Source: Myxococcales bacterium (GTDB lineage: Bacteria > Myxococcota_A > UBA9042). From it: 64,000 bases of DNA. The notes beneath the pieces were generated by a model that searched no databases, was not told the DNA's origin, and saw only the letters and a list, made by a program, of their open reading frames with translations. A program made the position numbers and the translations under genes. The stretch is from contig JBBISH010000020.1 in the NCBI GenBank assembly GCA_037441385.1, positions 98 to 64,097 on the forward strand, read 5' to 3'. Numbering within the stretch: position 1 is the stretch's first letter; every line of letters begins with the position of its first letter. Of the stretch, positions 73-16,724 are shown piece by piece.

Positions 73-900
73 CTACTGGAAGTAGGCCGCGTGCAGCGAC
101 GGCATCGCAAACGGCAGGATGAAGATGGTCAGCACGGACACGCCAAAGCAGCCCAGCGTCCACCACACCAGCCGCTCGCCCTTGAGGCCAAAAAAGCGGA
201 TGACGTGCAGCAAGGTGGCGTAGCTGAGCAGGGTGATCAGCGACCAGGTCTCGATGACGTCCCAGCCCCAGTAGCGGCCCCAGGACTGATTGGCCCAGAT
301 GGCGCCCGCGACGATGGTGGTCGCCCAGAACACCAGGCCAAAGCCCACAAACCGCCCGCAGTACGCTTCCAAGGCCTCGGCGCTGGGCAGGCGATCCAGC
401 CACGGCCCCCGTTTGCCACGCAGCTTGCGGTGCAGGGTCACCGCGGACGCCACGCTGAGCACAAAGGCCGCCACCGCCAGCTTGTTGAAGAACACGTGGA
501 AGACCAGCCAGATCGACCGCAGGGTCGGCGGGAGGTCGCGCACCTCAGGGTTGGCGAACAACCCCAGTCCCATCATCAAGAAGCTGACAGGCAGGGCCAC
601 GAGCGCCACTGCGGTCCACTTGGGCCGCCGCCACAAGAATACCAGCAGCATCACCAGCGTGATCCAGGCGTTCGACGACAGCACCTCGTACTTGAGCATG
701 TACGGCCCGTGCCCCGAGTGCTGCCAGCGCACAATCAGCGCCGCCGAGTGGGGTAGCAGGCCCGCCCACACCAGCCACGAGCCGTAGCGGGCGCGCTGCG
801 GATGGTCGAACACTACGCTGTGGGCAAAGGCAATGGTGGCCAAGATGTACAGGGCCACGGCGGCCCAGTGCAGCGAGTAGTCTAAGACTAGTGAATTCAA
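73..900 (-). CDS. ccsA: Cytochrome c biogenesis protein CcsA/ResC (System II)
   Basis: Multi-TM protein with the WWD motif GAIWANQSWGRYWGWDVIETWS and conserved His residues; last gene of an operon with a ResB-like gene. Confidence 0.92.
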   Translation of the reverse strand: MNSLVLDYSLHWAAVALYILATIAFAHSVVFDHPQRARYGSWLVWAGLLPHSAALIVRWQHSGHGPYMLKYEVLSSNAWITLVMLLVFLWRRPKWTAVALVALPVSFLMMGLGLFANPEVRDLPPTLRSIWLVFHVFFNKLAVAAFVLSVASAVTLHRKLRGKRGPWLDRLPSAEALEAYCGRFVGFGLVFWATTIVAGAIWANQSWGRYWGWDVIETWSLITLLSYATLLHVIRFFGLKGERLVWWTLGCFGVSVLTIFILPFAMPSLHAAYFQ

Positions 901-1460
901 GGTTTTGTCTCCGCTTGGCCGGACAGGGTGGTCGCCCCTTTGCCGTGGCTGATGCCGGCGGGCTGTAGGGCGAGTGCGGCCGCGCGGCCCACGACTGGAT
1001 CGGCAGCAAACGCCACGTGGTCGACGAGCCAGTGCTCGCCCGGCTTGGTCAGGAAGTATCGCATGGTGTACGAGTCGTCCGAAGGTGCGCCTTGTACGGT
1101 GCCGTCGCCAATGCGCCGATCCGCATAGTGCCAGCGCTCTACCGTATCGACTTGAATGGCGTCCGGATTGCGCTCCACCCGCACCACTTTGAGTTCCAGC
1201 AGCTTTGCATCAAGCGTCAGGCCCATGTCACTCTTGGCGCCCACGAGTCCCACGATCTTCTTGCCCTCAGCCGTGCCGGTCACGGCATCGACCTTGGTGG
1301 GGTCCGACAGGCGGTAGGCCTCGATCACACACCGGTTGTACTCGCGAACTAAGTCTTCGGCGCGCTGATCAGAGAGGGTCGAACTGGCCTGCCACAGCCA
1401 AACGCCCACCAGGCCGACCGCAAGCGTGGCGGCGGCCAGACCCAAAGTATTCTTCTTCAT
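897..1460 (-). CDS. Membrane-anchored hypothetical protein (NTF2/IMS-like fold suspected) inside the ccs operon
   Basis: N-terminal hydrophobic anchor; 4-bp overlaps with both neighbours; helix then beta-rich pattern (VDTVERWHY...YTMRYFL...WLVD). Confidence 0.7.
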   Translation of the reverse strand: MKKNTLGLAAATLAVGLVGVWLWQASSTLSDQRAEDLVREYNRCVIEAYRLSDPTKVDAVTGTAEGKKIVGLVGAKSDMGLTLDAKLLELKVVRVERNPDAIQVDTVERWHYADRRIGDGTVQGAPSDDSYTMRYFLTKPGEHWLVDHVAFAADPVVGRAAALALQPAGISHGKGATTLSGQAETKP

Positions 1461-2761
1461 GAGCGAACCTCATTGCCGCCCTCTGTGCGCACCAACTCGT
1501 CAAAGCGCTCGCGAAACAGCGGGACAAAGCGCAGCGGCCTCATGCGAATCACCACGTGCTCACGGTCGCCAAGGGGGTCGACGCGCACCATCCACGCCAC
1601 CGGCGTCACTCCGTAAATCAGCAAGGCGCCCAAAAGGCCGCTCGCCAGACCGAGCCAGGCGAGCCAAAGCGTTGCATCGCGGCGTGCGCGAAACTGCGAC
1701 CAGTGGCGGATTTCAGCGATTGCCAGATGTTGGCCCTGCCCCAGATTCACGCCTTGTCCCGGCGCGAGCGGCCCGGCGTAGCGCAGCCCGCTGTCGATCA
1801 GCACCCGCGCAAAGACCTGGTTGGGCAGTGCGCCCGATCGGCTCCGGTCGGCGCGCAAATGAACCTCGATACCGCGCACGGTGCCGCTGTATTCCAGGGC
1901 GTCGCCAGCCACGTCGCGGAGCAGGACAGCTACGGGAACTTGATCGCCGCGCCCAGCGTCCAACAAGACCGCAGGGCCACCATCTGCGGTCAGGTACATG
2001 CGCTCGTTGTCGATGTCAAGGGGGGTGTTGACTGCAATTTCATGGTCTTCGCTCGCAGGTCCCGCGCCCAGTCGAATGTGTGCCGACATCTCCTTCAGCT
2101 TGCCGGACGGGTAGCGCGTAGTCACGAGCTTGTCGAACCTTACCGACTTGCCTACCTGCATCGGCTCTGCGAGCGCACCACGCCATTGTCGCGCCCAAGC
2201 GGTGGTGTCGCCCGCCGCGAGCGTTTCGCCCTCCACAAGATCGATGACGCCGTTGCACTCCAGCAACATGCGCCCAAATCCTGCAACAACACAAAGGACT
2301 AGGCCCAGATGAAGCATGGCTGCGCCGGCATAGCCTACGCGACCGCTCTGCCCAAGCTGGATGGCTGGCCCACCGCGCGCCGGGCGCTCAAATTCGACCC
2401 GAAAGGGCGCGCTCGCCAGCGCCGCTTCGGTCACCGGCCTTTGCCACGTCCGCACCAATATCCGTATTTGCTCAACAAGCACCAACCCCAAGGATGCCAG
2501 AATCAGTCCCACCAGTACCAAGAACCAAGCCGAGGTCGCCACTTGGTCCAATTGCAGCAGACGCACAAACTGGGCCGAGCGCGGCCAGTCGGCCTCAAAG
2601 CGATGCAGTTGCAGCGCCGTAGCGTCATCGGCCTGGGGGACGATGGTCATCACCACACACGCCGCGGTAAAGGCGACCACTTCCGCGACGATGGTGCGCG
2701 GTCCGCGCAAGAGCCGGCGGAGGTATCGCCTGATAACGGCAAAGTGGGGCATGGGCGGCAT
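1457..2761 (-). CDS. resB: Cytochrome c biogenesis protein ResB/CcsB
   Basis: N-terminal TMs with IVPQ and SAWF motifs, His in third TM (MLHLGLVL), large periplasmic domain with IAVNTPL, C-terminal TM; next to ccsA. Confidence 0.85.
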   Translation of the reverse strand: MPPMPHFAVIRRYLRRLLRGPRTIVAEVVAFTAACVVMTIVPQADDATALQLHRFEADWPRSAQFVRLLQLDQVATSAWFLVLVGLILASLGLVLVEQIRILVRTWQRPVTEAALASAPFRVEFERPARGGPAIQLGQSGRVGYAGAAMLHLGLVLCVVAGFGRMLLECNGVIDLVEGETLAAGDTTAWARQWRGALAEPMQVGKSVRFDKLVTTRYPSGKLKEMSAHIRLGAGPASEDHEIAVNTPLDIDNERMYLTADGGPAVLLDAGRGDQVPVAVLLRDVAGDALEYSGTVRGIEVHLRADRSRSGALPNQVFARVLIDSGLRYAGPLAPGQGVNLGQGQHLAIAEIRHWSQFRARRDATLWLAWLGLASGLLGALLIYGVTPVAWMVRVDPLGDREHVVIRMRPLRFVPLFRERFDELVRTEGGNEVRS

Positions 2762-2817
2762 CGGTGGTCGTCTAACTCTCTCGCCAGCCCAGTGGTCTAG
2801 CTGTCTGCGGCCGGCAG

Positions 2818-5800
2818 CTACCAGTTCTCAGTTTGCGCGCCAGCGGGGTGGTCGCCGCTGCAGCCCGACGTCGCGGTTGCGGCGCAGTTGCTCGTGCTAT
2901 AGCCGGACGTTGGTGTAGTTCCCTTAGTAAACGCGGCGATCCACATGTTGGCCTTGTTGCCTTGGTAGGCCATGCGCGCGGGCATGTTGGCGCTGTCGCT
3001 GTCGCCGATCAGGCGCGACATACCGCTGCCGTGGGGCACAAGGACGTGGCATCGGATGCAGGCGACGCTGCTGTGGTTGCCGGTGTTGTGCACCGTGTTG
3101 TTCGAGTTCGTCATCGTATGGCAGTTTCGGCAGAACACGCCCGTGTTGCTGCCGATGGTATACAGAGTGCCTGTTGCGTTGGCCGGCCACAAGGTGTTGG
3201 TGCCCTTGAGCAGGAATGCTACTGCCGAACCGTGCGGGCCTTGGGCTGCTGGCGTCGTAACACCCTCACCGTGGCAATCCGAGCAGTACATGGTCTGCGT
3301 GCCCACGCTGCTCCAGGCGGCCGTCATCGCTGCAGCAGTGAGGGCCTTGGCTGTGAGTGCGTTGGTCCGCGAAGCGTCGTTCAGTGCCACTGTCACCGGG
3401 TGGATCGAGCGGTTCTTGGGGCTGAAGTCGCGGGCCACGTCCGTCCAGTTCGCGTTCCACGTCGCGAGGTTGGTGTTGGCGCCCGAGTGGCACTTGAAGC
3501 AGATCTCGTACTCCTTGGTCGCGGTGCCCAGCGCGTACGACGAGGCGGTCGACCAGTTGGTCGTGGTGGCCCAGGTCGCCACCGCACCGCTCACGCCCGT
3601 CAAAGTGCCCGACACGGCGTTGGTCTTGAGCGCGTGGATGCCCGCCGTCGCTGCGTGCGGGTTGTGGCAGTCTTCGCACTCCACGTGCTTGTTGGCGGCG
3701 ATGTAGGCCAGGTTTTCGTCGGTGGTATTGGCGCGGTGACGGCCGTTGTAGGTGTAGACGCCGTGGCTGTAGCCGGCGGCGCTAGTGGTCTTGCTGAAGC
3801 TGAGGGTGGTTGGCATCAGCAAGTTGCCGGCTGCGGTTGCGCCGAACACATATCCAAGCACGTAACTACCGCCCGTCGCTACGGTATTGGTCTCGATCTC
3901 CATGTCCAGGATCAGCGCGTCGCCCGAAGTCAGGGTGGCGGCGCCGCCGGCGAAAGTGATTGTCAGCGGTGTGCCTGGGCTGGTGGTGCCCCAGGTCTGG
4001 GTGTCGCTGGTCCAGTCCTTGACGATCGTGCCTTCTACGTCGGTCGACTTCCAGGTCGCCAGGCGGTAGCGCACCCGTGCCTTGGCGTTGGCGCTGCTGT
4101 TGTAGGCGTTGACGGTGATGGTCCAGTTGCCGGCCGCGACCGCGGTGGTGGCCGACACGGCCGGCGAGACGAAGGTGACCCGCCGCCACTTGCTGGTGCC
4201 GGTGGGCACGGTCTCGGCCGTTGCCGATTGGGTCTCGTTGGCCACGGCGGTTGTGCCTGCCGACATGCTGCGCGCGACCCAGGTGCCGCCGATGGGGCCG
4301 CCAGTGGTCGTGGTGAAGCTCAGCGCAGCCGGCAAGACCAACGAAGCGTTCGATGTGGCGTTGCCAAAGAAGAAGCTGGCGGTGCCACCGGCGGTTGGGG
4401 CGTTCGTGTAGTACTCGACTTCTAGGAACAGCTTGTCGCCCACGGCAAAGGTGGCCGCCGTGTTCGTCGTGAAGGCAATCGCCCAATTGCCAGCAGTGGT
4501 GGGTGCTTCGGTGGCGTACTGGGCCACGGGCTCGAGTGTAGTCCCCAGGGCGTTGGCCGCGGTCCACCGGTAAAGAGCATAGCGCGCAAACAAGTTCATG
4601 TTGGCCGACGACTCTTGCACGCGCACGTTCAACGTCAGGCTCGCACCAGCCGCGATGGTCGCCGCGGTCGCGATCGGCGGCGACAAGAACTGCGCCAAGT
4701 GATAGTAGCGGCTGCTGGTGTTGGTGGTCTGCGTGATCGTCTCTTGAGTGGTGCCCGCCGTGGGCATCATCGACCGCTGCTGCAGCGTAGTGGTGCCTGC
4801 GTACGTACCGCTGGCGAGCTGGAACGCCGTTGGCATCGTTCCGCTGGGCGCCGGGCCGTCCGTTGCCGAGCGCAAGTACAGGGTATTGCTCGACACCGTG
4901 CTGACCACGGCGTCCGTTGACTGCGCCGCCGGCATCGGTTCCGCCGCCGCCTCGGCCGCCAATGGCTTGAAGTACAGCTGGTTGGTCGACGAGACGGTGG
5001 TGGTGGTCCGACCATACTGGAACTGACCGTAGACCGACTCGGCCGCGGACGACATGGTCGCGACGTTGTAGTAGTCCTTGAGCGTGGTCGTCTTGGCCGG
5101 TCCACCGCCGGGCGTGGTGTCGGTGGTCTTGTGGTGGCAGCGGAAACAGAAGTCCTCTTCGGCGGCGTCGTGCGGCGCGGTCTGTCCCAGGGGAGCGCGC
5201 AGCGACCGATCGGCGCTGGCGTGCAACGCAAAGCGGTTGGTCCCGTTCTGCTGGGCCGTGGTGCTGCCGTCGTTGTGGCACTTGACGCAGTCCACGGTGA
5301 ACGCCGAGTTGCCGTTGGTGAACTGCCCGGCGACCGTGAAGGTGTGCCGCGAGGCTGCGTAGTTGGCGGCGTTGATGGCGGGCGTTACGGTCGTGCCGTC
5401 GGCCAACTGGTCGGCGCTGCTCTTGTTCTGCACGTTGACGTGGCAGTTGAGGCAGAGGCCCTTGCTGGCAAACGCCGCGTCGTATTCGCGGTTGGTGTAG
5501 AAGCCGGGCGTGGTGTCGCCGGGGGCCGAATTGGCCGGCGGGTTGCCGGCTGGCGGACCGCTGGCGATGCGCGACCGCAGATTGGCGCCGCGGCCCAAGG
5601 TGTTCGAAGTGTTGAGATCTGGGCGGAACACGTTGTGGTCGGCGTGGCATTGCACGCACGCCTTGTCCTTGTCCGTGGTGGCCAGCGTTGGGGTGGCCGA
5701 CGTGGTGTAGGTGGTGATTCCGCCTGTCAAATTGGCGCCCGTCTCCACCACGTGGTGGTAGGTGGTCGTGCGGGAGGTGGCGGCCACGTCGATGCCGTAC

Positions 5801-8800
5801 GGGTGGCACGAGACGCAGTCGGTATTGCCGCCCGATTCGCCGGGTTTGAAGCCGTCGGCGTGCGAGTGGCAGCCTACGCAGTTGCCGGCATAGTGCTGAC
5901 CGCCGTCGCTGCCGCCGCTGTTGCGGAAGCGCGCCGATCCGTCCGAATTCTTGGTCATGGTGTGGCACACTTCGCACACGCCGTTGCCCGGAGTCGTCAC
6001 GCCCGCGAAGCTGAAATCGGCTTTGCCGGTCAGGCTGCGGAAGTCCACGGCCTTGACCCCGCTGTTGGGCGTGGTGATCGACTCGCGCAGCAAGTAGATG
6101 TTCTTGGAGTCGTGGGTGTCGTGGCAGGTCCGGCACGTGAACGTTGCGCCCCAAGTGCCGTACTGGGTCGACGTGGTGCTGCTGTTGTGCAGTTTGACTT
6201 TGTGGCAGCCCGTGCAGGCCGTGTCGTCGTTGGTGCGGCGCAGCAGATTGCCGTCGCCGGCTCCACCAGGCGCGCCGTCGTGGGTCGCCGAATTCGAATC
6301 GGCGTAGTGCACGGCGTGGCAGGTCAAGCAAGCGACCTTGCCGGTCGTGTAGCTGGCGCTGCCCGCATTGTCGAGCACCAAGTTGTTGGTGGTGTTGCCG
6401 TCGTTGTCGATGCGATAGGTCACGCCCACGGCGATCGCGCTGGGGAGTGCCGCGGCCCAGGTGATCTGCGTGGCCGTGGCAGTGGCGATCAGGCGCGTGG
6501 TGTTCTTGTTGGCGCCGCTGGTGAAGCGCACCCACTTGCCGGCCAACCCGGTGAACGCGCCGGCGGTGTTGGTCAGCGAGGTGGTGGTACCCGCCGTGGC
6601 GGTGCCGCTCTTGGCGTCCATTTGCGCCGTGCCATCCGTGTCGACCGGCGTGGCGGCAAACAGCGGGCTGGTCGGGATCACCACGGACACCGGGTGACTT
6701 AGCTTGTTGCCCGTGTACGTGGTGGCGTCTTGGACATTGCGCACCGTGTGGCAGGCCACGCAGAGCTGCCCAGAGACCGTGTCCATGCGCAAGAAGTGCC
6801 GGCCCTGGCTGCCCGCCGCGGCTGGGGCAAACGGGTCGGCAGGCGTCTTGGTCTGCGAGTGTTGGTCGTGGCAACCCGAACAGAGCAGGGTAGTGCCGCC
6901 CGTGCCCAGGTGCTTGGCCACCGTGGGATCCGTGGGCGCACTGGCGCCAAACGCGGCGTTGTTCAACGCGGAATCCCAGCGGTGCGAAGTACCCGACACC
7001 CCTGGCACGGCCTGATCACTGCTGGACCAGTTCAGGCCCTTGAGCGAGTGGCAATTGAGGCACAAGTTCTGGTTCGACGCGTTGCTGGTCAGGTTGGCTC
7101 CCAACGTGTTGTGACCCACGTGGCAGTCCTCGCAGACATTGACCAGGTTGGCGGCGTTGTGCGGTGGGTCACTGGCGCGCGCGAGCGGGGGCAGCACCAA
7201 CGTCACGGCAACGGCGGGCAGCAGCCAAGCGGGGAGCCGGCGCCGCAGCAACACAACGGCCAGGATCGCCAAGATCAGCAGGGCCGGCATGCCCGCGCTC
7301 CCGCGCGTCTGGGCCGAGCAACCGCTGTCGCTGGGTGGCGCCGCGCTGACGCCCGGCTTGGGCGTGGACTTGCTGTCTGCGTCGGTTTGCAGCGCATCGG
7401 CCTGGCTATCCAGACCAACATCGGCCGCCTCGCTGTCTTGCCCCGTCGCCGAATCGTTGCCAGTCTGGGCATCGCTGGTGGCTTGGCTGTCGGCAGGGGC
7501 CTGGGCATCTCCGCCGATCTCAGCAGTGCTGGCGTCGCTGCCGCTCGCGTCGGCGTCGGGCGCTTCGCTGTCGCCAGCGCTATCGGCATCACTGGTGTCG
7601 CCGGCGACGGCGTCCGCGTTGCCCGCATCGCTCCCACTGGTTCCTGTAGCGTACATGCCGACTTGCAGCGGCGCCGAGCGCAGCTCGCCGTCGTCCACCC
7701 GTAGCTCGAACATGTACAGACCGGCCAGCGGTGGTGTCACGCTCAGCACTGCCGCGTGCGGATCAGACAGCGTGAGGCGCGGGCCGCTGATCTGGGTCCA
7801 AGTGTAGTTCACGCTCTTGCCGTCCGGGTCCCAGCTCGGCGTGCCGTCGAATTGAGTCGTCTCGCCCGCCGCGATCGTGCTGTCCAAATCGGCGACCTTG
7901 GCCAAGGGAACGGCATTGCCAAGCGGATCGTCGACCGTGATGGTCGCTCGCGCGCTGGCGCCAGCGCCCAGGGCCGACGCAGTCTGCAACTCAAAGACGT
8001 AGGTGCCGGGATCGATCGGCACAAAGCTGGTCTTGCAGTCGGCATTCTCGGCCATGGGTACATGGACGCCTTCGATCTGCTTCCAGGTGCAGGTGGGCTG
8101 GCTGCCGTCGGGTACGTAGCTCGCCGAACCGTCGAGTGCCACGGTTTCTGCTGTGTTTGCGGCAAGATGCGGTGTGAGCACCGCCCGCGCCGGACCCGAG
8201 GTGTCGCTGTCGACCAGGATCGTGGCGCGCGCGGCCGGGCTGTCCCACGTGCCGTCGTTGACGACGAGCTGGAATTCGTAGCGGCCGGCCTGGACTGGCG
8301 TGAACGTCACGGCCTTGGGGCCGGCGGCGGCCAAAGCGACCGGAGCGCCGGCAACCTGTTTCCAGCTGTACGTCAAGTTGGCGACCTCTAGGTCGCGGCT
8401 GGTTCCGCCGTCGAGCAGGACGCTTTGGCCGACTTGGCCGACCTCGGGCGCGACGATCGCGGCGACCGGCACCGTGTTGCCCACGTCGCCCACGACCACC
8501 GACGTTTGCACCGGCGCCGATGGCTGGCTGCCGTCGTTGGCCACTAGCTCAAAGGTATAGACACCAGCCTGGCTGGGCACAAACGACGGGCTGGCGGTCT
8601 CGCCGGCCGTCAGCGCGGCGCTCGCGCCCGACGTCTGCTTCCAGGTGTACGCAAGCGGCGACCCGTTGGCATCCCGGCTGAAGCGGGCGTCCAGGGTCAC
8701 TGCGGCACCGACCGCGGCGCTCAGCTCGGGGCCGGCATCCGCCGTGGGCGCAACGTTTTGCACGGCTACCGTGGCGCTAGTGGGGCCCTGGCTGATCTTG

Positions 8801-10866
8801 CCATCGCTGACGGTGAGGCCAAACACATGGTCACCCGCCGATCGCAGCACGGTCCAGGTGTTCATGGCCACCGGGTCCGCGATCGCGACGGGTGACGGCG
8901 ACGCCTGCACGGACCACGCGTAGGTCAAGGGATCCAGGTTTGGATCGCTAGAGGCGCTGCCGATCAGCCACACCTTGGTCGGCTCGCTCTTGGCGATCAG
9001 CTGCGCGACCGGCTTGGGCACATTGTCTTGCATGTCCAACGGATTCAGCCCCTTGCTGACCTCGACGCCGTCGCTGACGCCATCGCCGTCGGTGTCGGCA
9101 ACCTTGGCCAGCGTGCCCTTTTGGTATTCGCCCAGGTTGGACAAGCCGTCGCCGTCCAAATCGGTGAACGCATCGGACGGATCCTTGGGGTTCAGGCCGT
9201 TGGCGACCTCCCACGTGTCGGGCATTCCGTCGCAGTCGCTGTCGCCCGCACAGACCAAGGTCGTCGCGCCGGGCAGGGTGAATACCTCGATGCGACCGTT
9301 TTCGGCGCTGGTGACCAGCAGGCGGCCAAAGCTGTCCAACACTGCGCCCGCTGGCAGGTTCAGTTGGCCGGCTCCCTGGCCCCAACTGCCCATGCTGCCC
9401 TGATAGGTGCCATCGGCCAAGAAGACCGACACCGAGCTTTGGTAGCTGTCGACTACGAAAATCCGGCCGTCCTTGGCCAGTGCCACACCTGCGGGGCGCG
9501 TCAGGTTGCCGGGCTTGGCGCCAAAGCTGCCGATCGTGGCGACCTGGGTCCCGGCTTTGTCGTACACGCGGACCAGACCAAGGGCGGAATCCGCCACATA
9601 GATCGCCGTCTGCCCGTTCGCAACGGCCACTCCGGTCGGGGCACCGCCGCTCGCGGTCAACGGCGCCAGCTCCGTCCCAAGCGCATCAAAGCGCCGCACC
9701 ACGGCGGCCTTTGCGTCGGCCACCAGCACCGTGCCGGACTGCGGGTCGACCGCGATGTCTTGGGGTGCCAAGAACGTGCCGGCCTCGCCAAGCAAGCCCT
9801 TCGAGGTGCCGGCGGCGCCCAGCACCAGCACCCGCCCATGCTCGGTGTCGCCCACGTACAAGTCGCCGCTGATGGCCACCGCCACGGAAGTGGGGATACC
9901 GTCGATGCTCCAAGTGCTGAGCAGCGCGCCACCGCCGCCCACATGGACCAGGGTGCGCGCGCGCGGATCGGTGACCCACAAGCCGCCCGTACCATCGGCA
10001 GCGATGCGGGTCGGGTGCGTGCCGCTGGCACCGCTGGCCAGGAAGCCCGCTGCCTTGGACAACACGACTTGGACCTGTGCCGTCGCCGTGCTGCTCAGGC
10101 CATCGCTATCGGTGGCCGTGGCCGTCAGCACCGCGGTGCCGGCCGTGTTTGGCGCGGTCCACAAGGCCTTGCCGCTCGCATCGGGCTGGGTGACCACGCC
10201 GACGCTGGCGGCGAGCACGATCTGGACCGTCTTGCCCTGGGGACTGGTGGCGGACACGCTCACAGCTACGGATTCGTTGGGAAAGACTGCGGCAGCAGCG
10301 GGCGCGACTGTCACGACCGGCGGCGCGCCGCTCGCGACCGCGACGTCCAAGCTGGCTGGATCCCCCGCCGTGGGCTTGCCCATCAGACCGCCGTTGTCCC
10401 AGGCCGTGCAGGTCAAGGTGACCGTGCCGCCGCTGCTCGGCGCCGTCCAATTGGCCGAGACACTGGCCGAGGCCTGTGGTGGCGCTACGGGCACGTCGAT
10501 CGTTGTGAGTCCGTTGGCAAATTGCCCGGAGGTGGCGGTCAGCACGAACTTGGTGACGGTCCCGTCTGGGTCGGTGCCACTGCAGGCCACGGCCACGGTC
10601 GCGCTGGCCGGCACAGGCGTTGTCGCCACCGAAAGTGCAGAGACCGTGGGGCACTTGTTGCCCATTCCGCAATTGGCGGCCCACGCCGGCTTGGGCAGGA
10701 TCGCGGCCAGCAAGGTAAAGGCCAGGAGTGCGGCCTTGAGCCGGGCGAACTGCAGGGGCGGCGTCCAGCCAGCAGAACCGGCGACGGCGGCGCGTCCAGA
10801 CAGGGAAGCTCGCGGGGGCAAGACGAAACGGCGGGCGGTTGCGTGGGGGGGGGCTAGATGCACCAT
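2818..10866 (-). CDS. Giant surface protein: Ig/PKD domains, NHL beta-propeller, thrombospondin type-3-like Ca repeats, PKD array, acidic linker, internal MYXO-CTERM plus second signal peptide, then a 19-heme c-type cytochrome
   Basis: ATG at 10866 has a GGAG RBS (track start 10998 overlaps a likely -35 box). Signal peptide ending PAWA; NHL repeats (LTRPAGVAL, LNLPAGAVLD); DxDxDG repeats; 19 CXXCH counted, all after position 7170 in reading direction. Confidence 0.9.
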   Translation of the reverse strand: MVHLAPPHATARRFVLPPRASLSGRAAVAGSAGWTPPLQFARLKAALLAFTLLAAILPKPAWAANCGMGNKCPTVSALSVATTPVPASATVAVACSGTDPDGTVTKFVLTATSGQFANGLTTIDVPVAPPQASASVSANWTAPSSGGTVTLTCTAWDNGGLMGKPTAGDPASLDVAVASGAPPVVTVAPAAAAVFPNESVAVSVSATSPQGKTVQIVLAASVGVVTQPDASGKALWTAPNTAGTAVLTATATDSDGLSSTATAQVQVVLSKAAGFLASGASGTHPTRIAADGTGGLWVTDPRARTLVHVGGGGALLSTWSIDGIPTSVAVAISGDLYVGDTEHGRVLVLGAAGTSKGLLGEAGTFLAPQDIAVDPQSGTVLVADAKAAVVRRFDALGTELAPLTASGGAPTGVAVANGQTAIYVADSALGLVRVYDKAGTQVATIGSFGAKPGNLTRPAGVALAKDGRIFVVDSYQSSVSVFLADGTYQGSMGSWGQGAGQLNLPAGAVLDSFGRLLVTSAENGRIEVFTLPGATTLVCAGDSDCDGMPDTWEVANGLNPKDPSDAFTDLDGDGLSNLGEYQKGTLAKVADTDGDGVSDGVEVSKGLNPLDMQDNVPKPVAQLIAKSEPTKVWLIGSASSDPNLDPLTYAWSVQASPSPVAIADPVAMNTWTVLRSAGDHVFGLTVSDGKISQGPTSATVAVQNVAPTADAGPELSAAVGAAVTLDARFSRDANGSPLAYTWKQTSGASAALTAGETASPSFVPSQAGVYTFELVANDGSQPSAPVQTSVVVGDVGNTVPVAAIVAPEVGQVGQSVLLDGGTSRDLEVANLTYSWKQVAGAPVALAAAGPKAVTFTPVQAGRYEFQLVVNDGTWDSPAARATILVDSDTSGPARAVLTPHLAANTAETVALDGSASYVPDGSQPTCTWKQIEGVHVPMAENADCKTSFVPIDPGTYVFELQTASALGAGASARATITVDDPLGNAVPLAKVADLDSTIAAGETTQFDGTPSWDPDGKSVNYTWTQISGPRLTLSDPHAAVLSVTPPLAGLYMFELRVDDGELRSAPLQVGMYATGTSGSDAGNADAVAGDTSDADSAGDSEAPDADASGSDASTAEIGGDAQAPADSQATSDAQTGNDSATGQDSEAADVGLDSQADALQTDADSKSTPKPGVSAAPPSDSGCSAQTRGSAGMPALLILAILAVVLLRRRLPAWLLPAVAVTLVLPPLARASDPPHNAANLVNVCEDCHVGHNTLGANLTSNASNQNLCLNCHSLKGLNWSSSDQAVPGVSGTSHRWDSALNNAAFGASAPTDPTVAKHLGTGGTTLLCSGCHDQHSQTKTPADPFAPAAAGSQGRHFLRMDTVSGQLCVACHTVRNVQDATTYTGNKLSHPVSVVIPTSPLFAATPVDTDGTAQMDAKSGTATAGTTTSLTNTAGAFTGLAGKWVRFTSGANKNTTRLIATATATQITWAAALPSAIAVGVTYRIDNDGNTTNNLVLDNAGSASYTTGKVACLTCHAVHYADSNSATHDGAPGGAGDGNLLRRTNDDTACTGCHKVKLHNSSTTSTQYGTWGATFTCRTCHDTHDSKNIYLLRESITTPNSGVKAVDFRSLTGKADFSFAGVTTPGNGVCEVCHTMTKNSDGSARFRNSGGSDGGQHYAGNCVGCHSHADGFKPGESGGNTDCVSCHPYGIDVAATSRTTTYHHVVETGANLTGGITTYTTSATPTLATTDKDKACVQCHADHNVFRPDLNTSNTLGRGANLRSRIASGPPAGNPPANSAPGDTTPGFYTNREYDAAFASKGLCLNCHVNVQNKSSADQLADGTTVTPAINAANYAASRHTFTVAGQFTNGNSAFTVDCVKCHNDGSTTAQQNGTNRFALHASADRSLRAPLGQTAPHDAAEEDFCFRCHHKTTDTTPGGGPAKTTTLKDYYNVATMSSAAESVYGQFQYGRTTTTVSSTNQLYFKPLAAEAAAEPMPAAQSTDAVVSTVSSNTLYLRSATDGPAPSGTMPTAFQLASGTYAGTTTLQQRSMMPTAGTTQETITQTTNTSSRYYHLAQFLSPPIATAATIAAGASLTLNVRVQESSANMNLFARYALYRWTAANALGTTLEPVAQYATEAPTTAGNWAIAFTTNTAATFAVGDKLFLEVEYYTNAPTAGGTASFFFGNATSNASLVLPAALSFTTTTGGPIGGTWVARSMSAGTTAVANETQSATAETVPTGTSKWRRVTFVSPAVSATTAVAAGNWTITVNAYNSSANAKARVRYRLATWKSTDVEGTIVKDWTSDTQTWGTTSPGTPLTITFAGGAATLTSGDALILDMEIETNTVATGGSYVLGYVFGATAAGNLLMPTTLSFSKTTSAAGYSHGVYTYNGRHRANTTDENLAYIAANKHVECEDCHNPHAATAGIHALKTNAVSGTLTGVSGAVATWATTTNWSTASSYALGTATKEYEICFKCHSGANTNLATWNANWTDVARDFSPKNRSIHPVTVALNDASRTNALTAKALTAAAMTAAWSSVGTQTMYCSDCHGEGVTTPAAQGPHGSAVAFLLKGTNTLWPANATGTLYTIGSNTGVFCRNCHTMTNSNNTVHNTGNHSSVACIRCHVLVPHGSGMSRLIGDSDSANMPARMAYQGNKANMWIAAFTKGTTPTSGYSTSNCAATATSGCSGDHPAGAQTENW

Positions 10867-10970
10867 GGCGTACTCCAAGGGGTTCTTAGCCCCGTGGGAT
10901 TCGCCTGCTGGTGGTGTCACCCCCGGCTGGCGCCGGCACCATGCGCAGACTGGCCTGACGGCCGAACTTG

Positions 10971-10998
10971 ATCTTAAGAAGTGTGCATGGCCCGTCAA
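10971..10998 (-). promoter_or_regulatory. Candidate sigma70-type promoter for the giant cytochrome/ccs operon
   Basis: Minus strand TTGACG-N16-TAAGAT about 105 bp upstream of the ATG at 10866. Confidence 0.45.
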
Positions 10999-11222
10999 GC
11001 ACGAACCGTCGCACCGCGGTCCAACCTGTCACCGCAGTGTCGCCACGCTTCCGCAACTCGCGCCCCGCTTGTCGCCCGAGGCCGCAGGGCCTAACCTTCT
11101 GCCCAAGAGTCGCCCGGCACGCTGGGCGCCGCGTCTCGTCCCAAGGCCCTTGCCGTGATCGCACCTGCTCCACAAACCCTTCGCAGCTTCCCAGAAGTCG
11201 GCCGCGTCACCCAGAGGTCGGC

Positions 11223-12098
11223 ATGATCTGGGGTGCAAACGCCACCGCGCCAACCGGGAGTACTCCGTCCACGCCGCCGCACGGGTCGCCGTGGCTGGCC
11301 CGTACGCTGTGGGTGGCCGCGTCGGTGGCCTTGGCGCTGGCCCTGCGCACCTGGGTGATTGGCTCGGCGGTGGTGGTTTCCGAGTCCATGCGCCCCACGC
11401 TGGAAGTGGGCGACCACCTTTGGCTCGATCGAACGGCCTATGGCTTGTCTTGGCCCTGGAGCAGCGCGCATCTGCGTGAACTGCCGCGGCGTGGCGATGT
11501 GGTGGTGTTTCGCTACCCGTTCGACGACGGGTCAATGTACGTGGGCCGCCGCCTGATCAAGCGCGTAGTGGGGCTGCCCGGCGATCGCCTGCGCCTGCGC
11601 GACAACCGCTGGGAGCTCGGCGGCACGCCGACCGAACGCCGCGTGATCATTCCCCGCGAGCCCTGTGACGACGAGGGCGGGGCGATCTGCGAGCGCGCCG
11701 TCGAGGTTTTGGACGGACAGGCCTACACCACTTGGCGCCAAGTGCCGAGCGTGCCTGGGGAACGCCATAGCGACGACGGCTCGCTGGTCAATGCCAGCGC
11801 CTGGCCGCCCGGCATCTTCAACCCAACCCACGTCAAGCCCGCGGCGCGCGTCTACAGCCCGCCGCAGAACCGCGACTACCCCGAATTCGTCGTGCCGTCA
11901 GGCGTGGTGCTGTTGGTCGGCGACAACCGCGACGGCTCGCAGGACGGGCGCCACTTTGGTCTGGTCGAGCTGGACGCCATCGAGGGCCGGGCGCGCTGGG
12001 TGTGGGCGTCGCGGGTGCCGGGTGAGTGGCTGCCGCGCTGGGACCGAATTGGCCGCGCCACCGCCGAGCCAGCGGGTGCCGCGGATCGCCAGCCGTGA
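11223..12098 (+). CDS. lepB: Signal peptidase I (S26)
   Basis: Catalytic boxes SESMRPTLEVGD, LIKRVVGLPGD and GDNRDGSQDGR; single N-terminal TM; ATG 11223 preceded by AGAGG. Confidence 0.93.
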   Translation: MIWGANATAPTGSTPSTPPHGSPWLARTLWVAASVALALALRTWVIGSAVVVSESMRPTLEVGDHLWLDRTAYGLSWPWSSAHLRELPRRGDVVVFRYPFDDGSMYVGRRLIKRVVGLPGDRLRLRDNRWELGGTPTERRVIIPREPCDDEGGAICERAVEVLDGQAYTTWRQVPSVPGERHSDDGSLVNASAWPPGIFNPTHVKPAARVYSPPQNRDYPEFVVPSGVVLLVGDNRDGSQDGRHFGLVELDAIEGRARWVWASRVPGEWLPRWDRIGRATAEPAGAADRQP

Positions 12099-12121
12099 TC
12101 AAGGCCGGGCCGCCGCCGCCG

Positions 12122-13843
12122 CTATTCGATGAGCCCGAACTTCTTGAGCCGGTAGCGCAACAAGTCCCGGCTGACGCCCAGCAGCTTGGCGGCGCGCACT
12201 TGATTGCCCTCGCTGTATTCCATGGCGCGCTCTAGGGCCACGCGCTCCAGGTCGGCCAACGCCATCGATCCATCCAGGCGGAACACCACTTGCAGGGCAT
12301 CCTCGCCCGTCGCGGTCGCGTCTAGGTCATTGGGCATCGGCATGGGGCCGGGGGTCGGGTAGGTGGGCTGCGCCACCGTACCTCGGGCGGGCGGCTGGCC
12401 ATGACCTTCTGGAACGCCTGGGTGAAGGGCGGCAAAGGGGGCCAGGTGCGCGGTCGGCGTCGGGCTGACCGGCAACGCCACGGATTCGCCCGTGGCGGCG
12501 TGCTGGTGGGCCAACGACTGCAATTCGGGCGGCAGATGCAGGGGTTCGATGAAGTTCGACTCGCCGCACAGCGTGACGGCCGCCTCGATGGCGTATTTCA
12601 ACTCGCGGATATTGCCCGGCCACCAGTAGGTATTCAGAATTCGCCGCGCCGCCAAGGACAGGCCGTTGACGTGGGCACCCATCTCGCGGGTGTACGCCTT
12701 CAGCACATGGTCGGAGATCAGATCGATATCGGTCGGCCGCTCGCGCAGCGGCGGCAGACGCACCGCCAGCACCTTGAGTCGGTAGAACAGATCCTCGCGG
12801 AAGCGGCCTGCGGCGACCAACTCGGCCAGGTTCATGTGGCTGGCCGCCACGATGCGCACATCAGACTCCGCCTCGGTGTTCGAGCCCAGGCGGCGGTAGG
12901 TGTGCGTCTCGATGAAACGCAGCAGCTTGGCCTGCATGCCCAGCGGCATGTCGCCGATCTCGTCCAAAAACAGCGTGCCGCGGTTGGCACTTTCGATGAG
13001 GCCGACACGGGTCGAGCGGGCGTCGGTAAAGGCGCCGCGCTCGTGGCCCATCAGTTCACTTTCCAGCAGCGTCTCGGGCACGGATGCGCAGTTGATCTCG
13101 ACAAATGGACCGCCCGCACGGGCGCTCATCTGATGAAGTGCGCGCGCCGCCAAGCTTTTGCCGGTCCCGGTCTCGCCCGAGATGAGCACGGTCGAGCGCG
13201 GCGTGCGGGCAAAGCGCTGCAGGCTGTCCAGCACATTGAGCATGTGCGGATCCTGGCTGAGGATCCCGTGCTGACCCAGTTCGGCGTAGATAGTAGCGGG
13301 CTTGGGACTGGCGATGCGCGTGACGTTCAACCGCAGCAGCGCCTCGTGCAGGTCGTCGGCCGCGCACGGCTTGGTCAAGAAGTCGGCGGCCCCCAGTTTG
13401 GTGGCCTCGACGATGGTGGCCGGCTCGCCGATGGCGCTGACGACAATGACCGCTGGCCCGCCCGACGCGGGCAATTCGGCCAACAGGTCCAGGCCGCGGC
13501 CGTCGGGCAGGCGGATATCCAGCAAGATGACGTCGGGGTGGTGCTCTGCAATCGCCGCCCGTGCCTCGGCAAGCGAGGCCGCGCTGATGGCGTGGTAGCC
13601 CCAGCGGGTCAGGTCGCGGCAGGCGGCCCACGAAACCAGATGCTCGTCTTCGACGACGAGAACCACTGGTTGTCCAAGTTGTTTTGGTCGTTGCATGATT
13701 CCTGACCATGCTCCGCCTTGGCGGTTCGGCAGAACCAAGGGTGGCAGTGCCGAACTTGCGGCGTGGAGACTGGCACCCCGAGTGGCCGAGTTCCCCGAAG
13801 GGAGCGGCGATGTTTCTGGCTGATTGGAATACATAGCAGACAA
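12122..13843 (-). CDS. Sigma54-dependent response regulator (REC-AAA+-HTH, NtrC/AtoC family); true start may be further downstream
   Basis: Receiver (LVVEDE, LLDIRLPD, FLTKP), Walker A GETGTGKS, GAFTDA loop, LFLDEIG, WPGNIREL, C-terminal Fis-type HTH. Confidence 0.93.
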   Translation of the reverse strand: MSAMYSNQPETSPLPSGNSATRGASLHAASSALPPLVLPNRQGGAWSGIMQRPKQLGQPVVLVVEDEHLVSWAACRDLTRWGYHAISAASLAEARAAIAEHHPDVILLDIRLPDGRGLDLLAELPASGGPAVIVVSAIGEPATIVEATKLGAADFLTKPCAADDLHEALLRLNVTRIASPKPATIYAELGQHGILSQDPHMLNVLDSLQRFARTPRSTVLISGETGTGKSLAARALHQMSARAGGPFVEINCASVPETLLESELMGHERGAFTDARSTRVGLIESANRGTLFLDEIGDMPLGMQAKLLRFIETHTYRRLGSNTEAESDVRIVAASHMNLAELVAAGRFREDLFYRLKVLAVRLPPLRERPTDIDLISDHVLKAYTREMGAHVNGLSLAARRILNTYWWPGNIRELKYAIEAAVTLCGESNFIEPLHLPPELQSLAHQHAATGESVALPVSPTPTAHLAPFAALHPGVPEGHGQPPARGTVAQPTYPTPGPMPMPNDLDATATGEDALQVVFRLDGSMALADLERVALERAMEYSEGNQVRAAKLLGVSRDLLRYRLKKFGLIE

Positions 13844-14379: not shown

Positions 14380-15135
14380 ATGCCGATCAAGGTGGCCGCA
14401 CGCGCGCGCTGGCACAGGCACTGTTACCCGCAATGGCCGTGTGGCCTGCCCGGTCACCGGAACTGGCATTTGCTCAAGATTGCAGCGATCTTCCTGCTGG
14501 TGGCGAGTCAGTCGGCCTGCGGGGCCGCGCCGGTCGAGCGCAAGGGCGCCAGCACGCCAGAAGCCGCCGAGCGCGAGAGCTTGGCGTCGCGCCAAGAAGA
14601 GATCGTGCAAGACGGCGTCATCGAAAAGCTGGATCTCAATGGCGATCGCGTGCCGGATGTGGTGAAGCGCTACAAGCTGGTCGACGACCCGGCCGGCGAC
14701 GGCAAAGGCGGAGTCGTCAAGATCAAGGTGCTGGTGCGCAAAGACATCGACGTCAATTTCGATCGCAAGGCCGACATCGTAGAGGTCTACACCATCAGCG
14801 GCCTGCAGTCCGTCAAGGAGCGCGAAGAATTCGATCTAGACTTTGACGGGCGGGTCGACGAGATCCGCAAGTACAAGGGCGGCTATCCCGAAGAGATCGC
14901 CCAGGATCAAGACCGCGACGGCAAGATCGACACCTGGATGCAATACCAGCTGACCAAGAACGAAGACGGCAAGGACGTCAATCGGTTGATCGAGCGGCGG
15001 CGCGACCACAACGCCGATGGCCTGGTCGACGTGTGGGAGTACTACGTCAAGGGTGTGCTCCAGAAGATCGGTCGCGACGGCAACGGCGACGGCAAACCCG
15101 ACCAATTCACCCGGGTGGACGAGAAGCAGCGCTAG
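14380..15135 (+). CDS. Putative lipoprotein with repeated DxDxDG calcium-binding-like motifs
   Basis: GGAG RBS; lipobox-like QSAC; motifs DLNGDRVPD, DVNFDRKAD, DLDFDGRVD, DQDRDGKID, DHNADGLVD, DGNGDGKPD. Confidence 0.75.
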   Translation: MPIKVAARARWHRHCYPQWPCGLPGHRNWHLLKIAAIFLLVASQSACGAAPVERKGASTPEAAERESLASRQEEIVQDGVIEKLDLNGDRVPDVVKRYKLVDDPAGDGKGGVVKIKVLVRKDIDVNFDRKADIVEVYTISGLQSVKEREEFDLDFDGRVDEIRKYKGGYPEEIAQDQDRDGKIDTWMQYQLTKNEDGKDVNRLIERRRDHNADGLVDVWEYYVKGVLQKIGRDGNGDGKPDQFTRVDEKQR

Positions 15136-15170
15136 CCGGTCTGGCGCAGCCCTTCTGGTCCGGAGGCAAC

Positions 15171-16724
15171 ATGGCTCTGCGAATCTACGGAACACCGACC
15201 TGCCATGTCGAGCCCTTGGGCCGGCCCGTGCGCGTCATGCTCATCACGCCGCCCTACCACTCGGGCGTGGTGGAATCAGCGGGCGTTTGGATGCCCGTGG
15301 CCTTTGTCTACATCGCCGGCATGGTCCGCGCGCATGGCCACGAGGTCCGTATCTACGACGCCATGTCGTACTACCACGACTACGACCGGATCGAGGCGGA
15401 GATCCGCGATTTTGCACCTGATGTCATTGGTTTGACGGCGATCACCGCGTCGTCGCTCGCCTGCTTGAAGGTGTGCGCCATCGCCAAGCAAGTCAACCCG
15501 CAGATTCGCACCGTGATGGGCAACGCGCACTCGACGTTCTTGTGGCGCGAAATTCTTACAGAACACCCCGAGTGCGACTTTGTGGTGCGCGGCGAGGGCG
15601 AATTCACCATGGCCGAGCTGGCCGACACCCTGCGCGACGGCGGCGATTTGGCCACCATCTTGGGGCTGTCGCTGCGCATCGATGGGCAGCCTTGGGCCGC
15701 CAGCAAGCGGGCTCTGAATGCGGAGTTGGATAGTCTGCCGATGGCGTGGGACCTGATCGACTGGCCCATCTACACCTACCGGCCCCGGCCGGGCTCGCGG
15801 CTCGCGGTGGTGAGCTCGTCGCGCGGTTGTGAGGAAGCCTGCAGCTTCTGCTCGCAACAGCTGTACTGGGGGCGGACGTGGCGCGGGCACAGCCCCAAGC
15901 ACTTTGTAGACGAGCTGCAGATGCTCAAAGAGCGTTTTGGCGTCAGCATCGTCATGCTGGCCGACGAGACGCCCACCATGGACCCCGACCGCTGGCACGC
16001 GCTGCTGGACGAGCTGATCGCCCGCGATTTGAACATGGAACTGCTGATGGAGACGCGCGTGGACCACATCCTGCGCGACGAAGACCAGCTGCACCGCTAC
16101 AAGCAGGCCGGGATCAGCCACATCTACGTGGGGGTCGAGGCCACCGACCAAGTCACGCTGGACGTATTTACCAAGAATATTGGCGTGGAGCAGTCGCGGC
16201 AGGCCATCGCTGCGATCAACCGCCACGGCATGGTGTCTGAGACGTCGTTTGTCCTGGGCATGCCCGACGAGACGCCCGAGCACATGGCGGCCACGGTGGC
16301 GCTGGCCAAGCACTACGCGCCGGACCTTGCGTTCTTCTTGGCCATCACGCCATGGCCCTATGCGCAGTTGTACCCCAAATTGAAAGACCATTTGGTCGGG
16401 TTGGATTTCTCGCACTACAACTTGGTCGAGCCCGTCATCAAGCCCGACGCGATGACCTTGGAAGAAGTCACCAAGGGCCTGAATCAAGCGGCCCACCAGT
16501 TCTATGCCGACAAACTGCGTCGGCTGCACGAACTGCCGGTCGAGAAGCGGGCCTTCTTGGTCAAGGTCATGAAGATCTTGAGCAATCACTCGTACCTTGC
16601 CGATCACATGCAGGGGATCCACGCCGAAATGCCGGCCCATGTGCAACAGGCAATGGCCGCCATCGAAGCCGACATCGAAGCCGACATCGAAGCCAACAAC
16701 GCGGCGGATCAGGCGCGCCACTAG
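15171..16724 (+). CDS. Cobalamin-binding radical SAM enzyme (BchE-like / class B methyltransferase family)
   Basis: GGAGG RBS before ATG 15171; N-terminal B12-binding domain (PDVIGLTAIT, VVRGEGE); SSRGCEEACSFC = CX3CX2C. Confidence 0.9.
   Translation: MALRIYGTPTCHVEPLGRPVRVMLITPPYHSGVVESAGVWMPVAFVYIAGMVRAHGHEVRIYDAMSYYHDYDRIEAEIRDFAPDVIGLTAITASSLACLKVCAIAKQVNPQIRTVMGNAHSTFLWREILTEHPECDFVVRGEGEFTMAELADTLRDGGDLATILGLSLRIDGQPWAASKRALNAELDSLPMAWDLIDWPIYTYRPRPGSRLAVVSSSRGCEEACSFCSQQLYWGRTWRGHSPKHFVDELQMLKERFGVSIVMLADETPTMDPDRWHALLDELIARDLNMELLMETRVDHILRDEDQLHRYKQAGISHIYVGVEATDQVTLDVFTKNIGVEQSRQAIAAINRHGMVSETSFVLGMPDETPEHMAATVALAKHYAPDLAFFLAITPWPYAQLYPKLKDHLVGLDFSHYNLVEPVIKPDAMTLEEVTKGLNQAAHQFYADKLRRLHELPVEKRAFLVKVMKILSNHSYLADHMQGIHAEMPAHVQQAMAAIEADIEADIEANNAADQARH

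Follow-up and report, generated by a model that had tools for sequence, protein, structure and literature searches.

An internal MYXO-CTERM-like tag abutting a second export signal in front of a 19-heme cytochrome: a candidate polyprotein hinge in a Myxococcales bacterium

A 64,000-nucleotide stretch of DNA from a Myxococcales bacterium (GenBank assembly GCA_037441385.1, contig JBBISH010000020.1, positions 98 to 64,097 of the forward strand; hereafter the window, meaning the whole stretch analyzed) carries a single open reading frame (ORF) in which a protein with an NHL beta-propeller and PKD domains is continued in frame by a 19-heme c-type cytochrome. At the junction, a MYXO-CTERM tag is followed without a gap by the predicted hydrophobic core and AxA motif of a Sec signal, an arrangement that we call a tag-signal hinge. 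Because the tag abuts the signal directly, its Arg cluster would do double duty, as the tag's cytoplasmic tail and as the signal's n-region. The fused gene appears to be a true translational fusion of two neighboring cassette genes, maintained in evolution. Its product is probably a polyprotein, which would be resolved by signal peptidase I at ARA/SDPPH (a slash marks a predicted cleavage site throughout) and by lipidation and a myxosortase at Cys1227, yielding an NHL/PKD protein anchored at the surface and a released 19-heme cytochrome.

Architecture of the Fused Gene and Its Hinge

The fused ORF is one uninterrupted frame of 2726 codons including the stop; its parts are listed in Table 1. 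By eye, its N terminus is signal-like, reading ...LLAAILPKPAWA/AN, and bacterial TSP3 repeats precede the hinge, lying between the NHL propeller and a low-complexity linker alongside the PKD array. In the 119 residues N-terminal to the tag, Ala (26), Asp (20), Ser (18), and Gly (13) are the most frequent. The tag itself reads SGC1227-SAQTRGSAG-MPALLILAILAVVLL-RRR1254, with S1225-G-C1227 at 7326-7318 (Cys1227 at 7320-7318), a transmembrane (TM) helix at about amino acids (aa) 1237-1251 that starts with M1237 (7290-7288), and R1252-R1254 at 7245-7237. From L1255 onward the segment after the arginines runs to A1273-R-A1275 (7236-7174), and signal peptidase I is predicted to cut at A1275/S1276, between 7174 and 7173. 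After this cut the cytochrome part would begin SDPPHNAANLVNVCEDCH, its S1276DPPH starting at 7173. It carries 19 CxxCH motifs from aa 1289 to aa 2651, with a heme-free stretch between those at aa 1951 and aa 2441. Matches to PF14522 (64.8 bits) and PF09699 (50.4 bits), together with the 19 motifs and the ResB and CcsA genes downstream, identify it as a multiheme cytochrome. An earlier annotation of the same DNA (the original prediction) had given the residues, coordinates, heme count, and a GGGAG-N7-ATG within the tag correctly, as translation confirmed; the strand, which it left unstated, is minus.

The original prediction also took the tag for a MYXO-CTERM sorting signal, and two dedicated profiles divided on this point. 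With TIGR03382 (GC_trans_RRR), the window tag scored 20.4 and 19.7 bits against a cutoff of 15.85, the alignment stopping at RRR, whereas with TIGR03901 it fell below the cutoff. The signature of the family, a Cys motif, TM helix, and Arg cluster (SGC1227 and RRR at 1252-1254), is present, and NF038112 (myxosortase-dependent M36) aligned with aa 748-1254, reaching profile position 1602 of 1604. The position differs from the extreme C-terminal one of MYXO-CTERM tags in that 1472 residues follow RRR. Terminal tails of the same genome served as a control: 16 of 24 matched TIGR03901 and 7 of 24 matched TIGR03382 at E<=0.01, and by these rates the window tag scores within the genuine MYXO-CTERM range, toward its low end. 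The control set came from 30 regular-expression matches, from which visual inspection removed seven (C12, C22, C24, C33+, C71, C82-204aa, and C205), with C79 added.

Conservation of the Second Signal among Homologs

A HMMER search with aa 1252-1960 against 1.84 billion representatives returned 862 matches, of which 159 proteins were examined. The pattern xDxPH...CxxCH occurred in 62 of these 159 homologs. In stand-alone cytochromes, an ordinary N-terminal signal peptide ended right at xDxPH, as in P0005 (MNANASMRRLTRALSAAAAAAALAALPGAALA/SDPPH), and other such ends included ...ALA/SDPPH and ...ARA/TDLPH. Because the segment after RRR occupies the position of the h- and c-regions of these N-terminal signals, it is predicted to be a signal peptide by descent, one that begins at aa 1252 and not, as Sec signals do, at the N terminus. 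Judged by eye and by homology, its parts would be RRR (n-region), LPAWLLPAVAVTLVL (h-region), and PPLARA (c-region).

Thirteen distinct proteins, most of them less than 50% identical pairwise, carried an internal xDxPH directly after a TM helix, a basic cluster, and an h-region with AxA at its end (the window protein, P0004, P0006, P0012, P0019, P0021, P0024, P0025, P0027, P0030, P0031, P0039, and P0138). Twelve of the 13 hinges were GC-rich, and a Cys motif was found in 11 of these 12, or in 12 of 13 when locus L068 was included; the Cys lay 8-15 residues ahead of the first helix. When the 13 proteins, L068, and three Acidobacteriota loci were pooled, position -1 of the predicted cut was Ala in all 17 hinges and position -3 was Ala (12), Val (3), Ser (1), or Gly (1), and most c-regions contained Pro or Gly. 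The hinge segments were otherwise 14-57% identical to that of the window, and column identity averaged about 30%. The original reading of the basic-hydrophobic-AxA segment as a signal peptidase I type signal is thus upheld by the alignment with stand-alone signal peptides and by the -3/-1 rule.

The Fusion in Relatives and in Independent Assemblies

Among 40 relatives, only one, G007 of the same genus, had an orthologue of the fused gene, and there the single frame was kept. Its hinge, SGCTTQPRGSSGMSVVLLLALLALGLRRLRQRPWLLTGLALTALLPGLALA/SDAPH, differs from that of the window by many substitutions and one extra residue and retains the Cys, TM helix, basic cluster, h-region, and ALA/SD. At least 11 further relatives, less than 50% identical, were fused as well and kept all features of the hinge; the genes are therefore not always separate in relatives, which the original prediction had named as an outcome that would refute it. 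A stop or frameshift at the hinge, named likewise, was absent from an independent assembly: one public run, possibly the source of this DNA, has a Logan contig with 0 differences and 0 gaps over 6700-7800. A second public run gave an identical 178-base contig covering 7025-7202 only. The cytochrome was found at E<=1e-20 in only 5 of the 401 genomes of a phylum scan.

Processing and Heme-Attachment Enzymes

Enzymes of the kinds that would act on the hinge are encoded in the genome. A myxosortase-family protease (C1:48001-49686) reached 104.4 bits on NF040914 (Mrt_core) against a cutoff of 100, GspD scored 439 bits (vs 351), and LspA scored 78.1 bits (vs 73.95). Signal peptidase I was present in two copies, a housekeeping-like one on contig C29 and an S26 paralogue that is the divergent neighbor of the fused gene. 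ResB, a small ORF, and CcsA directly follow the cytochrome in the window, and in other loci, L020, L040, L044, and L047 among them, the cytochrome is likewise followed by homologs of all three, as though it had a system II heme-attachment set of its own.

Further Hinges in the Same Genome

The original prediction had placed a recurrence of the design at 42824-42970. A tag-signal hinge is indeed present there, of a different kind: the second signal is of the lipoprotein (signal peptidase II) type, not AxA, and the cargo is a small DUF4266 protein. This ORF reads PGC (aa 307-309), a TM helix, RRVGRRH, and GTLLALAVLGALALNS/C356, followed by DUF4266 (PF14086, 65.9 bits). Its tag scored 18.9 bits on TIGR03901, slightly below the cutoff, and the lipobox, ALNS/C356, was assigned by sequence, LspA being encoded. 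In all 11 orthologues (at least 55% identity, at least nine genera), the PGC, TM helix, basic cluster, h-region, and lipobox Cys were kept in one frame, and the residue at -1 of the lipobox Cys was small in 11 of 11. Paralogues of DUF4266 are small stand-alone lipoproteins, at least two of which are encoded elsewhere in the genome (C14 and C55).

In another hinge of the lipoprotein type, at C98:16611-19632(-), a Cys-rich protein is connected with an SMP-30-like propeller by GGC...RRRKR-LGILLLLLVSLA/C. In the C98 family, where each short locus was read in its longest ORF only, the hinge with an invariant lipobox Cys was found in 7 of the 7 readable loci among 19, one of them from another family (the remaining 12 loci were not evaluated), and ten relatives had open frames of at least 1000 codons. 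With three more hinge ORFs (C58, C164, and C187; Table 1), the genome holds six internal tags with a second export signal against about 24 terminal tags, approximately one in five. All six matched MYXO-CTERM models, four of them above a curated cutoff, and three of the six hinge families are conserved across species, genera, or families. From 15 two-helix candidates, nine had been dropped by eye as off-frame, of low complexity, or lacking a Cys motif (C3, C6, C11 twice, C22, C54, C67, C95, and C109).

The NHL-Cytochrome Cassette across Lineages

In each of the 12 fused representatives tested, the N-terminal part was homologous to the NHL part of the window protein, with or without PKD. A scan of species-representative genomes with the cytochrome alignment gave 77 loci from many phyla, and most of them had an NHL homolog directly upstream in the same orientation. 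This same-strand partner stops just past the last PKD in Anaeromyxobacter, other Myxococcales-labelled records, L023 (Deltaproteobacteria-labelled), and Binatota records, and the tag was absent from all nine split upstream genes checked (L021 twice, L022, L023, L026, L032 twice, L035, and L037). The partner tails of Bacteroidota, Calditrichota, and KSB1 resemble, as we assume from their appearance, the C-terminal domain of type IX secretion (T9SS-type). The partner protein of the cassette bears whichever surface-sorting tag its lineage uses.

In the Acidobacteriota-type loci L041 and L044, the partner ends in a TM-RR tail and the cytochrome gene is separate. In L044 (about 9906-9952), the tail ends approximately 6 bases before the start codon of the cytochrome, and both reading frames encode RRGV, 35 bases apart. 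The L044 arrangement is a plausible pre-fusion state. In L046, L048, and L050, an IPTL-CTERM tag passes directly into a signal peptide, and a pentaheme cytochrome comes next; TIGR04174 scored 32.9 and 20.9 bits on these hinges against a cutoff of 20.5, and 17.8 bits on that of L050. A quick tree of 45 hand-picked rows, with the remaining homologs left out and P0019 and P0021 entered as their first 330 residues, placed the IPTL-type fusions in their own clade (Shimodaira-Hasegawa-like approximate likelihood ratio test [SH-aLRT] 95) beside the split L044, which supports at least two independent fusions. The MYXO-type fusions were scattered over the tree, implying seven changes, of which the well-supported branches force only one; a single origin of the MYXO-type fusions would be compatible with those branches, and only the IPTL-type origin appears clearly separate. 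At L020 (JACRCW010000046.1), two hinge-type fusions stand in tandem, 1879-5559 with 14 hemes and 5876-13726 with 19, followed by ResB, the small ORF, and CcsA.

Proposed Processing and Alternatives

The processing that we favor would proceed as follows. The NHL/PKD part would be exported by the N-terminal signal until the tag helix halts transfer, with RRR remaining cytoplasmic, and the second hydrophobic segment would then restart export for the cytochrome part, whose hemes would be attached by the downstream-encoded ResB/CcsA. Signal peptidase I, possibly the adjacent paralogue, would cleave ARA/SDPPH and free the cytochrome. Cys1227 would be lipidated, a myxosortase-family protease would take off the leftover two-helix hairpin, and the NHL/PKD protein would go to the cell surface through type II secretion. 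Each of the two cleavages, the final locations, and a 1:1 output are thus predictions, made from the architecture, its conservation, and the enzymes encoded.

Several findings weigh against this scheme. On TIGR03901 the window tag reached only 16.3-17.7 bits, under the cutoff of 20, and a set of 28 hinge segments, 25 of them MYXO-type, matched the models less often than the terminal tails did (9 of 28 for TIGR03901 and 4 of 28 for TIGR03382, at the same E value). The hinge of P0030 has no Cys, and that of P0138 is a TM-RKEK-signal segment without a recognized tag. In the Phycisphaerae loci L091-L093, the NHL propeller is fused straight to a multiheme cytochrome with no membrane hinge; separation of the two is therefore not obligatory for function. 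The protease encoded is closest to MrtP, at 166.5 bits under the equivalog cutoff of 250, and a tag that continues into a second membrane helix may not be acceptable to a myxosortase. The S26 paralogue was adjacent only in the same-genus locus L019 and was not found around L020, L024, L033, or L068, so that the idea of a conserved signal peptidase devoted to the hinge found only partial support (one of the five other MYXO-type loci searched). To our knowledge, a cleavage product is on record for no internal MYXO-CTERM protein, that of the window included.

An uncleaved hairpin, in which the two hydrophobic segments would hold both periplasmic domains in the inner membrane or only one of the cuts would occur, is the strongest of the alternatives, and we consider it unlikely. 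It would account for the Phycisphaerae fusions, for P0030 and P0138, and for the subthreshold TIGR03901 score, and its topology, with RRR inside and both domains outside, is feasible without any cut; it leaves unexplained, however, the Cys 8-15 residues before the first helix in 12 of 13 GC-rich hinges, the Ala at -1 and small residue at -3 in 17 of 17, the helix-breaking Pro or Gly of the c-region, and the lipobox Cys in the hinges of lipoprotein type (11 of 11 for the DUF4266 family and 7 of 7 for the C98 family). The residues that the proteases require have been kept while the other hinge columns drifted to the low mean identity given above.

An internal translation start would make the cytochrome mainly from an in-frame codon in or after the tag helix, the read-through fusion being incidental; we regard this as improbable. 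The upstream frame contains no stop, and ribosomes therefore read through regardless. Two candidate starts were considered, the ATG of M1237 preceded by GGGAG-N7, which the original prediction had proposed, and a GTG or TTG at -27/-26 giving MLLRRR.... The former would produce a cytochrome with the tag helix left at its N terminus, an odd additional segment, and its GGAG is lost in the same-genus orthologue; the latter would give a canonical signal peptide, and a Met immediately ahead of the basic n-region is kept in P0012 and P0039. A Shine-Dalgarno-like word before any in-frame start was found in just 2 of 10 hinge loci, so that initiation at GGGAG-N7-ATG is a weak proposal and internal initiation has little support as a conserved mechanism.

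That an assembly or sequencing error (a lost stop or a frameshift) joined two genes is next to impossible and was rejected: the genome is a draft in 221 contigs and long spurious open frames are common at high GC, but the G007 fusion at 74-89% identity, with its many hinge substitutions and one in-frame indel, the fused distant relatives from other assemblies, and the identical independent contig all argue against it.

Comparison with Known Systems

If both cuts of the favored scheme occur, the fused protein would be a bacterial polyprotein that a sorting protease and a signal peptidase together resolve. An internal MYXO-CTERM that arose by gene fusion is already in print: in the available text of PMC11980579 (Guo, Haft & Wall, mBio 2025), the internal tag of Myxococcus xanthus MXAN_5598 is ascribed to a fusion of two genes, its N-terminal part being proposed to be processed. 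That report also describes cleavage of the MYXO-CTERM tag of TraA by MrtX, with TraA compared in E. coli in the presence and absence of the cognate protease, and cites work on mid-protein function of C-terminal sorting tags (LPXTG and ArtA signals). The window protein shares with MXAN_5598 a mid-ORF tag and an origin by gene fusion; in MXAN_5598, the adhesin-like N-terminal part is proposed to be surface-anchored and the C-terminal part must leave the cytoplasm (PMC11980579, in its available text). In contrast to MXAN_5598, which the same text describes as rare and atypical with no mention of a second signal peptide, the tag in the window abuts a signal of the signal peptidase I/II type, the cargo is a 19-heme cytochrome, and six such ORFs occur in one genome. 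Internal tags are thus commoner and better conserved than "rare" would imply. With MYXO-CTERM/myxosortase (MrtX) sorting, the window shares the Cys motif, TM helix, Arg cluster, a TIGR03382 score above the cutoff, and an encoded protease and GspD; it differs in its internal tag, the TIGR03901 score below the cutoff, and an MrtP-like protease.

Mid-protein sorting tags have parallels elsewhere. The NCBIfam model NF033207 ("midcut-by-XrtH"), to judge by its name, describes one that is served by a different sorting enzyme; it scored 25.4-38.1 bits on the three Acidobacteriota IPTL-type hinges, under its cutoff of 45, and gave no match to the window hinge, and our literature search found no paper on midcut-by-XrtH. 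A Haloferax ArtA substrate is said to have a tripartite signal that is not C-terminal, in work from 2017 attributed to Abdul Halim and colleagues. The Bradyrhizobium FbcH cytochrome b/c1 is reportedly made as a polyprotein that is cut at an internal signal peptide, for which we found no paper. Flavivirus and bunyavirus glycoprotein precursors are cut at internal signal peptides. As in FbcH and in the viral precursors, a membrane helix in the window protein is followed by an internal signal peptide at which signal peptidase, cutting on the far side of the membrane, would free the downstream domain, in FbcH a cytochrome c; unlike the window protein, these precursors are not known to involve a sorting tag or second protease, and the upstream part of FbcH is said to remain a membrane protein. 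Polyprotein resolution of the kind proposed here is familiar from viral glycoprotein precursors and scarcely documented in bacteria.

The gene order of the cassette recalls the Uet electron-uptake clusters of 'Ca. Tenderia' and Gallionella, where, according to the available text of the two reports, UetH, UetI (NHL-repeat), and the undecaheme UetJ are followed by CcsA/CcsB (10.1101/2022.05.06.490989; PMC10734462). The window has the order NHL part, cytochrome, ResB, CcsA, a likeness of gene order; the genes in the Uet clusters are separate, and the hemes number 11 there as against 19 in the window.

In the literature we found no tag directly abutting a signal of the signal peptidase I/II type, and the supplement of PMC11980579 may hold more cases. 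Our search likewise found no report of hinge conservation over genera or families in several unrelated gene pairs, of hinge frequency in one genome, of a convergent IPTL version, or of a link between the hinge and an NHL-multiheme cytochrome-CcsBA cassette. As a tentative generalization, the tag-signal hinge might be a general, selected Gram-negative way to encode exported partner pairs as a polyprotein that two membrane proteases resolve. Possible grounds for this would be the linkage of at least six cargo pairs, its persistence across genera and families, and the convergence on IPTL-CTERM in Acidobacteriota.

If the hinge works as proposed, the NHL-cytochrome version would deliver a surface-anchored propeller and a giant cytochrome to the same site at a strict 1:1 ratio, presumably for extracellular electron transfer; the NHL-propeller, multiheme cytochrome, and CcsBA cassette is a widely conserved candidate module for that process. 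Annotation would then shift from a giant "hypothetical protein" to a surface lipoprotein plus a secreted cytochrome, as would the use of sorting-tag hidden Markov models, for which a C-terminal position is now assumed, and the counts of myxosortase and exosortase substrates. Being short and portable, the hinge is directly testable by a reporter assay.

Coordinates and Neighboring Genes

Positions without a prefix in Table 1 are those of the window.

Table 1. Coordinates of the fused gene, its parts, neighboring genes, and other hinge ORFs
Feature	Position	Strand	Basis or remark
Fused ORF	2818..10998	-	Public gene call from M45 (10866), 2682 aa (P0003)
Putative Sec signal at the N terminus of the full precursor, ARLKAALLAFTLLAAILPKPAWA/AN	10678..10746	-	By eye
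NHL beta-propeller, aa 407-577	9268..9780	-	Domain search
PKD / K319L-like PKD array, aa 748-1105	7684..8757	-	PF22352, 168 bits; PF18911, 69.7 bits
Low-complexity Ala/Asp/Ser/Gly linker	7327..7644	-	Composition
Internal MYXO-CTERM-like tag: SGC, spacer, TM helix, RRR	7237..7326	-	TIGR03382 above cutoff, TIGR03901 below; NF038112 alignment
Predicted h- and c-regions of second signal peptide, LPAWLLPAVAVTLVLPPLARA	7174..7236	-	Positional homology with stand-alone homologs
19-heme c-type cytochrome part, aa 1276-2726	2821..7173	-	CxxCH count, domain search
GGGAG-N7-ATG (M1237), possible internal start	7288..7308	-	Not conserved
Second signal peptidase I (S26) paralogue, divergent neighbor of fused gene	11220..12098	+	TIGR02227, 101.9 bits; PF10502, 108 bits
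ResB/CcsB-like cytochrome c biogenesis gene, directly downstream	1457..2761	-	PF05140, 78.4 bits
Small conserved ORF between CcsA-like and ResB-like genes	897..1460	-	Conserved in other loci
CcsA-like cytochrome c assembly gene	73..900	-	Domain search
Second hinge ORF, 408 aa	41903..43129	+	Tag PGC...RRVGRRH, 42821-42919; lipoprotein-type signal, 42920-42967; lipobox Cys356, 42968-42970; DUF4266
C58 hinge ORF	C58:18150-20249	+	fn3-like part and beta-barrel-like tail, 4 kb from gspD
C164 hinge ORF	C164:7627-11304	-	TSP3 repeats and weak Phenol_MetA_deg-like part
C187 hinge ORF	C187:562-4221	+	Cys-rich parts joined via lipobox
IPTL-type fusions (Acidobacteriota/Thermoanaerobaculia)	L046:7646-10942, L048:7487-10942, L050:976-4251		

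Beside the signal peptidase gene, the window encodes a sigma-54-dependent response regulator at 12122-13843(-), and a B12-binding radical SAM protein follows at 15033-16724(+). Further ORFs lie downstream of the DUF4266 fusion, at 43338-44825(+) and nearby.

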